A stretch of DNA of 64,000 nt, taken from assembly GCF_003018115.1 (NCBI RefSeq), contig NZ_CP027457.1. One strand, given 5' to 3'. A program made the position numbers and the translations under genes. This DNA comes from Escherichia coli (GTDB lineage Bacteria; Pseudomonadota; Gammaproteobacteria; Enterobacterales; Enterobacteriaceae). The notes under the pieces are model-generated. The model made no database searches. It had not been told where the DNA came from and worked only from the letters and a program-made list of their open reading frames with translations. Of this stretch, positions 2,655 to 30,252 are shown one piece after another (position 1 is the stretch's first letter; every line of letters starts with the position of its first letter).

Positions 2655-3941
2655 TTACGCGTTATAGGCATTCTCGCCGTGACTGTTGACATCCAGCCCT
2701 TCTCGCTCCTGCTCTTCCGGTACACGCAGACCAACCGTCAGATCCGCCAGTTTGTAGCCAATAAATGCCACCACACCGGACCAGACGATCGTAATGGCGA
2801 TGCTTTCCAGCTGTACCAGCAACTGATGGCCCATCGTCACACCTTCAGCGAAGCCCACGCCACCCAGCGAACTGGCGGCAAAAATCCCAGTCATGATACA
2901 GCCGACAATGCCACAAACGCCGTGCACACCGAAGACATCGCAGGGATCATCCACCCGCAGCAAGCGTTTGAGCATAGTAACGCCCCACAAGCCCGCCAGA
3001 CCAGCTACCACGCCGATAATCAACGCGCCGCCAACCCCAATGTAGCCACACGCTGGCGTCACGCCGACCAGACCGGCAATCGCGCCAGAACACGCTCCAA
3101 GCAGAGAAGGCTTACCACGCAGCGCCCATTCACCGAAGATCCAGCCAAGAATTGCCGCCGCCGTTGCGACCACAGTATTCACAAATGCCAGTGCCGCGAT
3201 TTCATTCGCCGTGCCCGCTGACCCGGCGTTAAAGCCAAACCAACCAATATAGAGAATGGCAGTACCGGTGAAGACCATTGGCAGGTTGTGCGGTTTAAAC
3301 GCCTCTTTGCCGAAGCCCACGCGTTTGCCTATCAGATACGCGCCCACCAGACCGGCGATTGCGGCGTTAATATGCACCACCGTGCCACCCGCGAAATCCA
3401 GCGCACCGTGAGAAGCCAGCAAACCACCGCCCCACACCATATGCGCAATCGGAATGTAAGAGAGCGTCAGCCATACCACCACGAAAATCAACACAGCTGA
3501 GAAGCGGATTCGTTCCGCCAGCGCCCCAACGATCAAGCCGACGGTAATGCAGGCAAACGAGCCCTGAAACGCCACGTGGATATACTGATAAATGCTGCCC
3601 ATCACCGCCGTCAGTTCGATGTTTTTTAGCATCAACCAGTTAATGTTGCCGAAGAAGTTGTTGCCCTCACCAAACGCCAGCGAGTAACCGTAAACCACCC
3701 AGAGAATACAGACCAGTGCAAACGTCACCGTCACCTGCGTCAGCATCGACAGCACGTTTTTGCCGCGAATCAACCCACCGTAAAACAGGGCAATCCCCGG
3801 AATAGTCATAAACAGCACCAGCGCAGTACAAATCATCATAAACGCATTGTCGGCTTTATCGGCCACCGCAGGTGCAGCCATTACCAGTCCCGGCAGCATC
3901 GCCAGTGAAGCAAGCCCAGTTTTTATCGTCGCTATCTTCAT
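2655..3941 (-). CDS. amtB: ammonium transporter AmtB
   Basis: 428-aa ORF with signal peptide and multi-TM Amt-family sequence; immediately downstream of glnK as in the glnK-amtB operon. Confidence 0.95.
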   Translation of the reverse strand: MKIATIKTGLASLAMLPGLVMAAPAVADKADNAFMMICTALVLFMTIPGIALFYGGLIRGKNVLSMLTQVTVTFALVCILWVVYGYSLAFGEGNNFFGNINWLMLKNIELTAVMGSIYQYIHVAFQGSFACITVGLIVGALAERIRFSAVLIFVVVWLTLSYIPIAHMVWGGGLLASHGALDFAGGTVVHINAAIAGLVGAYLIGKRVGFGKEAFKPHNLPMVFTGTAILYIGWFGFNAGSAGTANEIAALAFVNTVVATAAAILGWIFGEWALRGKPSLLGACSGAIAGLVGVTPACGYIGVGGALIIGVVAGLAGLWGVTMLKRLLRVDDPCDVFGVHGVCGIVGCIMTGIFAASSLGGVGFAEGVTMGHQLLVQLESIAITIVWSGVVAFIGYKLADLTVGLRVPEEQEREGLDVNSHGENAYNA

Positions 3942-3970
3942 TTTTCGTTCCTGTTGCTGTGTGCCAGAGA

Positions 3971-4309
3971 TTACAGCGCCGCTTCGTCGGCTTCGCCGGT
4001 ACGAATACGAATGACGCGTTGCAATTCAGCGACGAAGATTTTGCCGTCGCCAATTTTTCCGGTGTAAGCCGCCTTACTGACGATATCGATCACTTCATCG
4101 AGTTGGTCATCAGCAATCGCCACATCAATTTTTACTTTTGGCAGGAAGTTGACGCTGTATTCCGCCCCCCGGTACAGCTCGGCATGCCCTTTCTGACGCC
4201 CGAAACCTTTCACTTCGGTGACGGTCAGGCCCTGAATACCAATGGAAGATAACGCTTCACGAACGTCTTCCAGCTTGAATGGTTTGATTATCACGGTCAC
4301 CAGCTTCAT
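3971..4309 (-). CDS. glnK: PII nitrogen regulatory protein GlnK
   Basis: Internal Met of ORF 3971..4447 gives the 112-aa MKLVTVIIKPFKLEDVREAL...RTGEADEAAL, the PII family signature. Confidence 0.95.
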   Translation of the reverse strand: MKLVTVIIKPFKLEDVREALSSIGIQGLTVTEVKGFGRQKGHAELYRGAEYSVNFLPKVKIDVAIADDQLDEVIDIVSKAAYTGKIGDGKIFVAELQRVIRIRTGEADEAAL

Positions 4310-4360
4310 AGATCCCCTCCGGTCAGAATTCGGTAATGGTTCTGCTACACGAAGAAGGTA

Positions 4361-4377
4361 TTGCAAGCGGTGTGCCA
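4361..4377 (-). promoter_or_regulatory. sigma-54 (RpoN) promoter of glnK-amtB
   Basis: Reverse complement reads TGGCAC-accgc-TTGCA, an exact match to the -24/-12 sigma-54 consensus TGGCAC-N5-TTGCA, about 50 nt upstream of the glnK ATG. Confidence 0.7.
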
Positions 4378-4489
4378 GAAATGAAAAACGAGAAAGAGAG
4401 CAGGAAGTTAAGAAGATTGAAAATGAAAACGCACTATGACAGTGCACAGTGCGTTACATTTTTGCACCAACGATGAAATATTGCGCTAT

Positions 4490-8036
<3,547 letters not shown>

Positions 8037-20350: not shown

Positions 20351-20421
20351 CATAACAATCTTTTGTTGTTACGCTAACACCGAAAGAGGCTTTTCGCACG
20401 GTTCCATGCAAAATTCATGAC

Positions 20422-20453
20422 AAAAAAAAGCCCACCACCTGGCGGTGACGGGC
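20422..20453 (-). terminator. rho-independent terminator of tig
   Basis: Minus-strand RNA: 10-bp stem gcccgucacc/gguggugggc with 4-nt loop, followed by a U8 run. Confidence 0.75.
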
Positions 20454-30120: not shown

Positions 30121-30146
30121 AAAAGGTGCTACGGCACCTTTTTTCT
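30121..30146 (+). terminator. rho-independent terminator of the cyo operon
   Basis: aaggtgc-tacg-gcacctt stem-loop followed by tttttt. Confidence 0.65.
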
Positions 30147-30252
30147 TAGCATTAGAAACATATCCCTCTCGAAATATTTACTAAAAAATCCCCATGTTTA
30201 CCCCATTCGTTTGCCGCTTTACACTAGTCGTGAATTTAAAACAGAGGTGGTA

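Follow-up and report, generated by a model that had tools for sequence, protein, structure and literature searches.

Organization of the mdlB-glnK-amtB locus

The DNA analysed here, called the window below, is a 64,000-nucleotide stretch of the Escherichia coli genome. On its minus strand the gene order is mdlB, glnK, amtB, with mdlA further upstream (Table 1). Each of the three gene products scored above the cut-off of its NCBIfam equivalog model: GlnK reached 236.8 bits on NF007946 (cut-off 181), AmtB 880.5 bits on NF007947 (cut-off 657) and SmdB/MdlB 1184.9 bits on NF008056 (cut-off 746). An open reading frame call at 3971..4447 was rejected as a GTG-extended artefact of glnK, which occupies 3971..4309. 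The RefSeq annotation of the matching genome gives the neighbourhood as decR-mdlA-mdlB-glnK-amtB, with tesB on the other strand. glnK and amtB are the first and second genes of the operon under glnKp.

The gene mdlB is co-oriented with glnK, and its 3' end abuts the enhancer region. The mdlB TGA codon lies at 4492..4490 and the glnK ATG at 4309..4307, both on the minus strand, and positions 4310..4489 make up the whole intergenic spacer of 180 bp. From the end of mdlB to the predicted glnK transcription start the distance is 139 nt. Of 5426 complete E. coli genomes, 5423 contain the segment of 311 bp around the spacer, which is 100% identical in many of them; in 4750 the region is at least 99% identical.

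Table 1. Genes and regulatory features of the glnK region, in window coordinates
Feature	Position	Strand	Basis
amtB CDS, ammonium transporter	2655..3941	-	NCBIfam NF007947 equivalog; RefSeq
glnK CDS, PII-family regulator, 112 aa	3971..4309	-	NCBIfam NF007946 equivalog; RefSeq on identical DNA
glnK leader	4310..4350	-	Sequence; Shine-Dalgarno GGAGGGG at 4320..4314, region conserved
Predicted transcription start	4351	-	12 nt past the -12 C, -24/-12 rule
CT-rich CCTTCTTC, centre about -4, anti-Shine-Dalgarno 'insulator' of glnKp	4351..4358	-	Levy et al., bioRxiv 10.1101/086108
Sigma-54 (RpoN) core TGGCAC-ACCGC-TTGCA	4362..4377	-	Sole exact match in window; identical to OS03; conserved
Terminator-like hairpin AACGCACTGTG/CATAGTGCGTT (4455..4428) and tail TTCATTTTC (4427..4419)	4419..4455	-	Terminator scan, RNA fold
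Proximal NtrC-type dyad TGCACTGTCATAGTGCG, centre 4438 = -87	4430..4446 (minus strand reads 4446..4430)		Sequence and conservation
Distal NtrC-type dyad TGCAAAAATGTAACGCA, centre 4458 = -107	4450..4466 (minus strand reads 4466..4450)		Sequence and conservation
mdlB CDS, SmdB-family ABC exporter	4490..6271	-	NCBIfam NF008056; RefSeq

The sigma-54 core element

From 4377 to 4362 the minus strand reads TGGCACACCGCTTGCA. The GG at 4376/4375 corresponds to positions -25/-24 and the GC at 4364/4363 to -13/-12; the two dinucleotides are 10 bp apart and oriented toward glnK, as in a sigma-54 promoter. The initial annotation had described an exact RpoN consensus on the minus strand at 4361..4377, about 50 nt before glnK. 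The motif is indeed there and lies 52 nt from the glnK ATG, but the interval ran one base too far at its 3' end.

When both strands of the 64-kb window were scanned, the exact pattern TGGCAC-N5-TTGCA was found once, compared with a mean of 0.12 in shuffled windows, 12 out of 100 of which contained at least one exact match. One exact match in an entire window is therefore only slightly out of the ordinary. With up to two mismatches allowed, the window holds 24 sigma-54 motif matches against 27 expected, which is the chance level. The chance of an exact match on one strand of the 180-bp spacer is about 1.5e-4, as obtained by our scaling of the shuffle rate. A scan of 3900..4800 gave no sigma-70-like promoter, and no Rfam family was found in 4200..4600 at E values up to 1.

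Published evidence for glnKp

Occupancy of the element by sigma-54 is documented. In the ChIP-seq study of Bonocora et al. 2015 (PMC4591121), peak OS03 carries the motif CTGGCACACCGCTTGCA on the glnK strand, with a predicted start 42 nt from glnK; this 17-mer is identical to the window sequence and lies at the same 42-nt distance. The data confirm sigma-54 occupancy, while the start is only a prediction there, set 19 bp past the centre of the motif, and glnKp is flagged as 'Predicted in EcoCyc'. The same study found that most E. coli sigma-54 ChIP-seq sites are intragenic and of unclear function (PMC4591121).

Dependence on NtrC is likewise documented. Brown et al. 2014 (PMC4066584) assigned a 39.7-fold NtrC ChIP-seq peak to glnK-amtB and could not readily detect glnK mRNA in a glnG deletion strain, in which complementation restored it. 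Shimada et al. 2021 (PMC8743547) obtained gSELEX peaks between mdlB and glnK with the RpoN holoenzyme, with NtrC and with both together. Schumacher et al. reported that activated NtrC alone drives transcription from glnKp and that NtrC-specific activity at glnKp is 400-fold up in ammonium-starved compared with ammonium-rich cells. The core of the Salmonella ortholog, TGGCACATCCTTTGCAAT, binds sigma-54, and nitrogen limitation raised the activity of a Salmonella glnK promoter fusion from 1.1 to 1778 Miller units (ca. 1600-fold) in a sigma-54-dependent manner (PMC3844500). Cloned glnKp also responds to NtrC in synthetic enhancers, and a 2020 engineering paper describes it as a perfect match to the -12/-24 consensus.

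The identification of the element with the known nitrogen-regulated glnK promoter, made in the initial annotation, is supported by the identity of the 17-mer to the published sigma-54 site, the NtrC peaks, the glnG dependence and the Salmonella ortholog. The element is real, was read correctly and is already known, and it serves as a valid positive control for the annotation, as had been proposed.

Transcription start and leader

The -24/-12 rule places the transcription start at 4351, at the same 42-nt distance to glnK as in the prediction of PMC4591121. Mapping of the E. coli glnK start site under nitrogen starvation was not found in the accessible literature. An RNA beginning at 4351 would have a 42-nt leader and is predicted to fold weakly (-10 kcal/mol, z +1.3), leaving the Shine-Dalgarno sequence mostly unpaired.

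Levy et al. (bioRxiv 10.1101/086108) tested a 50-bp glnKp fragment in synthetic reporter constructs and found that it keeps read-through transcripts from being translated. The silencing was attributed to CT-rich anti-Shine-Dalgarno segments, the key one being centred at -4 (bioRxiv 10.1101/086108). As in these insulators, a CT-rich segment near -4 (CCTTCTTC) and an upstream, distal CT-rich stretch (4407..4383) occur here, whereas the published tests were done with the 50-bp fragment placed before reporters and the sequence considered here precedes the native leader. In the minimum-energy fold of the read-through RNA, CUUCUUCG (4357..4350) pairs with CGGAGGGG (4321..4314). The pairing is present, but the stability of the fold is no better than that of shuffled sequences (z +0.36), and we dropped it as support for anti-Shine-Dalgarno insulation.

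Upstream NtrC-type dyads

Upstream of the core promoter lie two dyads of 17 bp each with their centres 20 bp apart, in helical register and, at -87 and -107, inside the range of about 80-150 bp upstream of a sigma-54 promoter that is expected of NtrC enhancers. The proximal dyad has one mismatch to TGCAC-N7-GTGCA. Scored against the published 14-position NtrC consensus TGCACCAnnnTGGTGCA, it matches at 10 of the 14 positions (4 mismatches) and the distal dyad at 9 (5 mismatches). Matches with up to four mismatches occur 60 times in the window against 58 expected, and a looser NtrC dyad pattern is also found at chance level. We therefore dropped motif significance as an argument for the dyads: because matches this good are no more frequent than expected by chance, the sequence alone does not establish them, and the support comes from conservation. 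Orthologous dyads match the consensus better, for example TGCACCAGCATGGTGCG, which agrees at 13 of 14 positions. The half-sites are conserved against a diverged spacer, as sites bound by a protein would be, and we take this phylogenetic footprint as good evidence that the dyads form the NtrC enhancer.

The TGCAC-containing sequences at about 4440..4475 that the initial annotation had put forward as possible NtrC sites do exist. The interval takes in the distal dyad but stops short of the right half of the proximal one, leaving out its most conserved portion, GTGCG at 4434..4430; the guess that NtrC sites are located here is upheld by the phylogenetic footprint. The published 81-bp NtrC ChIP-seq interval 471741-471821, when anchored on the Bonocora motif centre, corresponds to window positions 4390..4310. 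This is the core promoter plus leader, 40-75 bp from the dyads, so the interval does not pinpoint them. No base-resolution NtrC footprint for E. coli glnKp was found in the accessible literature.

Two further NtrC-like sequences occur nearby. A third E. coli candidate, AGCGCCTGAATAGCGCA, lies over the mdlB stop codon with its centre at -139; it was rejected because E. albertii does not conserve it and because its register differs from that of the third site described below for other genera. Inside mdlB the minus strand carries GACACCATTCTGGTGCT at 4632..4648, centred some 289 bp before the glnK start. With 3 mismatches in 14 positions it is the best NtrC consensus match of the neighbourhood, and it may simply be coding sequence.

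Conservation and enhancer-promoter geometry

Upstream regions of glnK were compared in 15 Enterobacterales, using one genome per species, from the genera Escherichia, Citrobacter, Enterobacter, Klebsiella, Superficieibacter, Acerihabitans, Rahnella, Yersinia and Photorhabdus. The synteny mdlB-glnK-amtB is kept in 14 of the 15. All 15 loci have a -24/-12 element at the orthologous position, in which the TGGCA and TTGC columns are invariant, and the leaders predicted from it are 33-78 nt long. The mean column identity of the alignment is 42%, and only 18 intergenic columns are invariant. Fourteen of these belong to TGGCA, TTGC and the GTGCG of the proximal right half-site; the remaining four are one G of the Shine-Dalgarno sequence and the ATG.

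The proximal dyad is likewise present in every species, with the consensus tGCACt...aTgGTGCG at 60-80% or more and GTGCG invariant, and the spacer between dyad and promoter is unalignable and variable in length across the 15 species. A distal dyad with outer half-sites of the TGCA/CGCA type lies exactly 20 bp upstream of the proximal one in 12 loci and is absent from Klebsiella BIGb0407 and both Photorhabdus. A third dyad, gCACC-N5-tCAGGCA, was observed 62 bp upstream of the proximal one in Enterobacter, Superficieibacter, Acerihabitans, Rahnella and Yersinia (loci L003-L005 and L009-L012), an example being CGCACCATAATCAGGCA at about -203. Escherichia and Citrobacter have no third dyad, and their enhancer-promoter spacers are shorter by about 54 and 44 bp, respectively.

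The proximal dyad is centred at -87 in Escherichia, -97 in Citrobacter, -118 in Superficieibacter, -130/-131 in Klebsiella BIGb0407 and Photorhabdus, and -140 to -142 in the remaining species. The six distance classes share a helical phase (Rayleigh p of about 0.015 with a period of 10.5 bp and 0.006 with one of 11 bp), in a post hoc test with n = 6, and this phasing of the enhancer-promoter distances is only suggestive. The IHF core consensus WATCAANNNNTTR was absent between the E. coli enhancer and promoter when up to one mismatch was allowed, and for this reason we make no claim of IHF involvement.

Among more distant loci, most glnK loci of Pseudomonas and other Gamma- and Betaproteobacteria (L016-L080) have no strict TGGYAY-N5-YTGC within 300 nt, while a few distant glnK loci carry this pattern about 200 nt upstream. 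From these sequences, the promoter architecture of the distant loci appears to differ or to be situated further upstream.

A terminator-like hairpin after mdlB

The enhancer region can also be read as RNA. The segment AACGCACTGTG-CACTGT-CATAGTGCGTT, which begins 35 nt past the mdlB stop codon, can fold into a hairpin with an 11-bp stem, after which comes the tail UUCAUUUUC. In the stem, the right half-site of the distal dyad is base-paired with that of the proximal dyad. The calculated stability is -18.8 kcal/mol (z -3.6), and 0 of 200 shuffled sequences were equally stable. Among nine Enterobacteriaceae the T-run does not vary, and pairing is retained in 91.9% of cells. One pair covaries, being C-G in five of the nine and U-A in four. 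Its left member is located in the spacer between the dyads, and the covariation probably reflects a single evolutionary event; much of the stem is in any case constrained by the NtrC half-sites. The T-run is missing in Yersinia, Rahnella, Acerihabitans and Photorhabdus. Searches for a mapped RNA 3' end at the hairpin gave none, and mdlB was absent from the E. coli Term-seq supplementary data that were searched. It is possible that the hairpin is an intrinsic terminator of mdlAB that is embedded in the glnK enhancer.

Proposed mechanism

The mdlB-glnK spacer almost certainly holds glnKp, an enhancer-dependent sigma-54 promoter with NtrC dyads at -87 and -107 and a start near 4351. Sigma-54 RNA polymerase would wait on TGGCAC-N5-TTGCA as a closed, inactive complex. 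Upon nitrogen limitation glutamine would drop, NtrB would phosphorylate NtrC, and NtrC-P would oligomerise on the two dyads, which are expected to lie on one face of the helix because they are 20 bp apart. NtrC-P could then reach the polymerase via a loop of the T-rich DNA, ca. 50 bp long, that separates the proximal dyad from -24. ATP hydrolysis by NtrC-P would open the promoter, and transcription from about 4351 would yield the 42-nt leader followed by glnK-amtB. The NtrB/NtrC phosphorylation cascade and ATP-driven opening are established for the Ntr system and for sigma-54 activators; for this promoter, the motif and its uniqueness in the window, the gene identities, the conservation of core and dyads and, from published work, the in vivo occupancy and glnG dependence are observed, and we infer where exactly transcription starts, that NtrC binds these particular dyads and how the loop is arranged.

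Alternative explanations

That the exact TGGCAC-N5-TTGCA is a functionless chance occurrence has a negligible probability. A match somewhere in a window of this size is not exceptional, as the 12 of 100 shuffled windows with at least one hit indicate, but this one stands, correctly oriented, in the 180 bp ahead of a nitrogen-regulated operon, which we estimate at about 1.5e-4 by chance. Together with the invariance of TGGCA and TTGC in 15 species whose spacers are otherwise unalignable and the published sigma-54 occupancy, this effectively refutes the explanation already. It is also highly improbable that the site is real but transcriptionally inert, a poised sigma-54 complex, with glnK-amtB expressed mostly from transcripts that run on from mdlAB or from a sigma-70 promoter in the spacer that has gone unrecognised. 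Such an arrangement would fit with the intragenic location and unclear function of most E. coli sigma-54 ChIP-seq sites, with the end of the co-oriented mdlB just 139 nt before the predicted start, and with a glnKp start that is predicted, not mapped, in accessible sources. An inert site is nevertheless hard to reconcile with a -24/-12 element kept at the same position in 15 species, and a sigma-70 promoter with the outcome of the scan of 3900..4800. Read-through as the main source of expression is contradicted by the loss of glnK mRNA upon glnG deletion and by the Salmonella fusion, which is sigma-54-dependent and essentially off when nitrogen is not limiting; furthermore, there is a terminator-like hairpin after mdlB, and glnKp was found experimentally to silence translation of the read-through transcripts (bioRxiv 10.1101/086108).

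The upstream palindromes could alternatively serve as the mdlAB terminator only, with NtrC acting elsewhere, for example at the dyad inside mdlB at 4632..4648. This we consider very unlikely. The hairpin with its T-run does score as a terminator (z -3.6), the two dyads match the NtrC consensus at chance level, and the mdlB sequence is closer to consensus with its 3 mismatches in 14 positions. Against this, the primary sequence TGCAC...GGTGCG is kept and not just the pairing; it even persists in Yersinia, Rahnella, Acerihabitans and Photorhabdus, which lack the T-run. The second dyad 20 bp upstream in most species and the third at 62 bp in several would be needless for a terminator, and the distance to the promoter changes in roughly helical steps. 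The terminator and enhancer roles are mutually compatible. Keeping the dyads as the NtrC enhancer of glnKp, we tentatively suggest, as a possibility somewhat short of even, that the enhancer serves two functions: the mdlAB terminator hairpin and U-run would be encoded by the right half-sites of the dyads along with the intervening spacer, and the enhancer would have moved in approximately whole helical turns (-87, -97, -118, -130/-131, -141). If true, one stretch of ca. 40 bp stops incoming transcription as RNA and activates the next promoter as DNA. The overlap of enhancer and terminator and the helically phased spacing would, if real, be mildly new, minor additions to a well-studied promoter.

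Comparison with related promoters

In organism, locus, flanking genes, 17-mer and 42-nt distance the element corresponds to E. coli K-12 glnKp and is that promoter; within the element no difference was found, and the window runs in reverse to the K-12 coordinates. With E. coli glnAp2 it shares the -24/-12 core, tandem upstream NtrC dyads on one face of the helix, and looping of NtrC-P. The high-affinity NtrC sites of glnAp2 are at -108 and -140, whereas the dyads of glnKp number only two and lie at -87 and -107, a separation of 20 bp rather than 32. Unlike glnAp2, glnKp has dyads that both match the consensus poorly and no overlapping sigma-70 promoter. The literature describes glnKp as a 'simpler' promoter that is activated later, once NtrC has accumulated. 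The Salmonella Typhimurium glnK-amtB promoter (STM0462) has the orthologous position and the core TGGCACATCCTTTGCAAT, and experiments have shown it to be sigma-54-dependent and inducible by nitrogen limitation; the cores differ in the 5-bp spacer, which is ATCCT in Salmonella and ACCGC in E. coli.

Reading the raw sequence recovered a real, experimentally supported regulatory element, and the value of this is mainly calibration: since glnKp was read correctly from sequence, similar calls made in the same way merit some trust. The comparison also indicates the limit of motif reading, because the sigma-54 core was recognisable from the sequence while the NtrC dyads needed cross-species conservation.

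Other sites in the window

A second sigma-54 binding site of the window lies in the tig-clpP spacer, where TGTCATGAATTTTGCA occurs on the minus strand at 20407..20422, about 155 nt before clpP. It corresponds to the published sigma-54 ChIP-seq site OS02 (TTGTCATGAATTTTGCA, 154 nt from clpP; PMC4591121). Its -24 element is non-canonical, with GT in place of GG, and it has no known activator. A further sequence, TGGCACGTTGTTTGAA, is located on the plus strand at 37458..37473, inside dxs and in the sense orientation; it has one mismatch to the sigma-54 pattern and lacks the -12 GC. This dxs site is probably inert, as no sigma-54 ChIP-seq peak has been reported in dxs.

Between yajR and cyoE, the reference strain E2865 (L081, 9615..11986) carries about 2.4 kb that is missing from the window at about 30144..30243. 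The additional DNA of E2865 holds a gene for a TPR protein and what resembles a toxin-antitoxin pair, made up of a GNAT acetyltransferase and a DUF1778 gene; the difference looks like a strain-specific indel.
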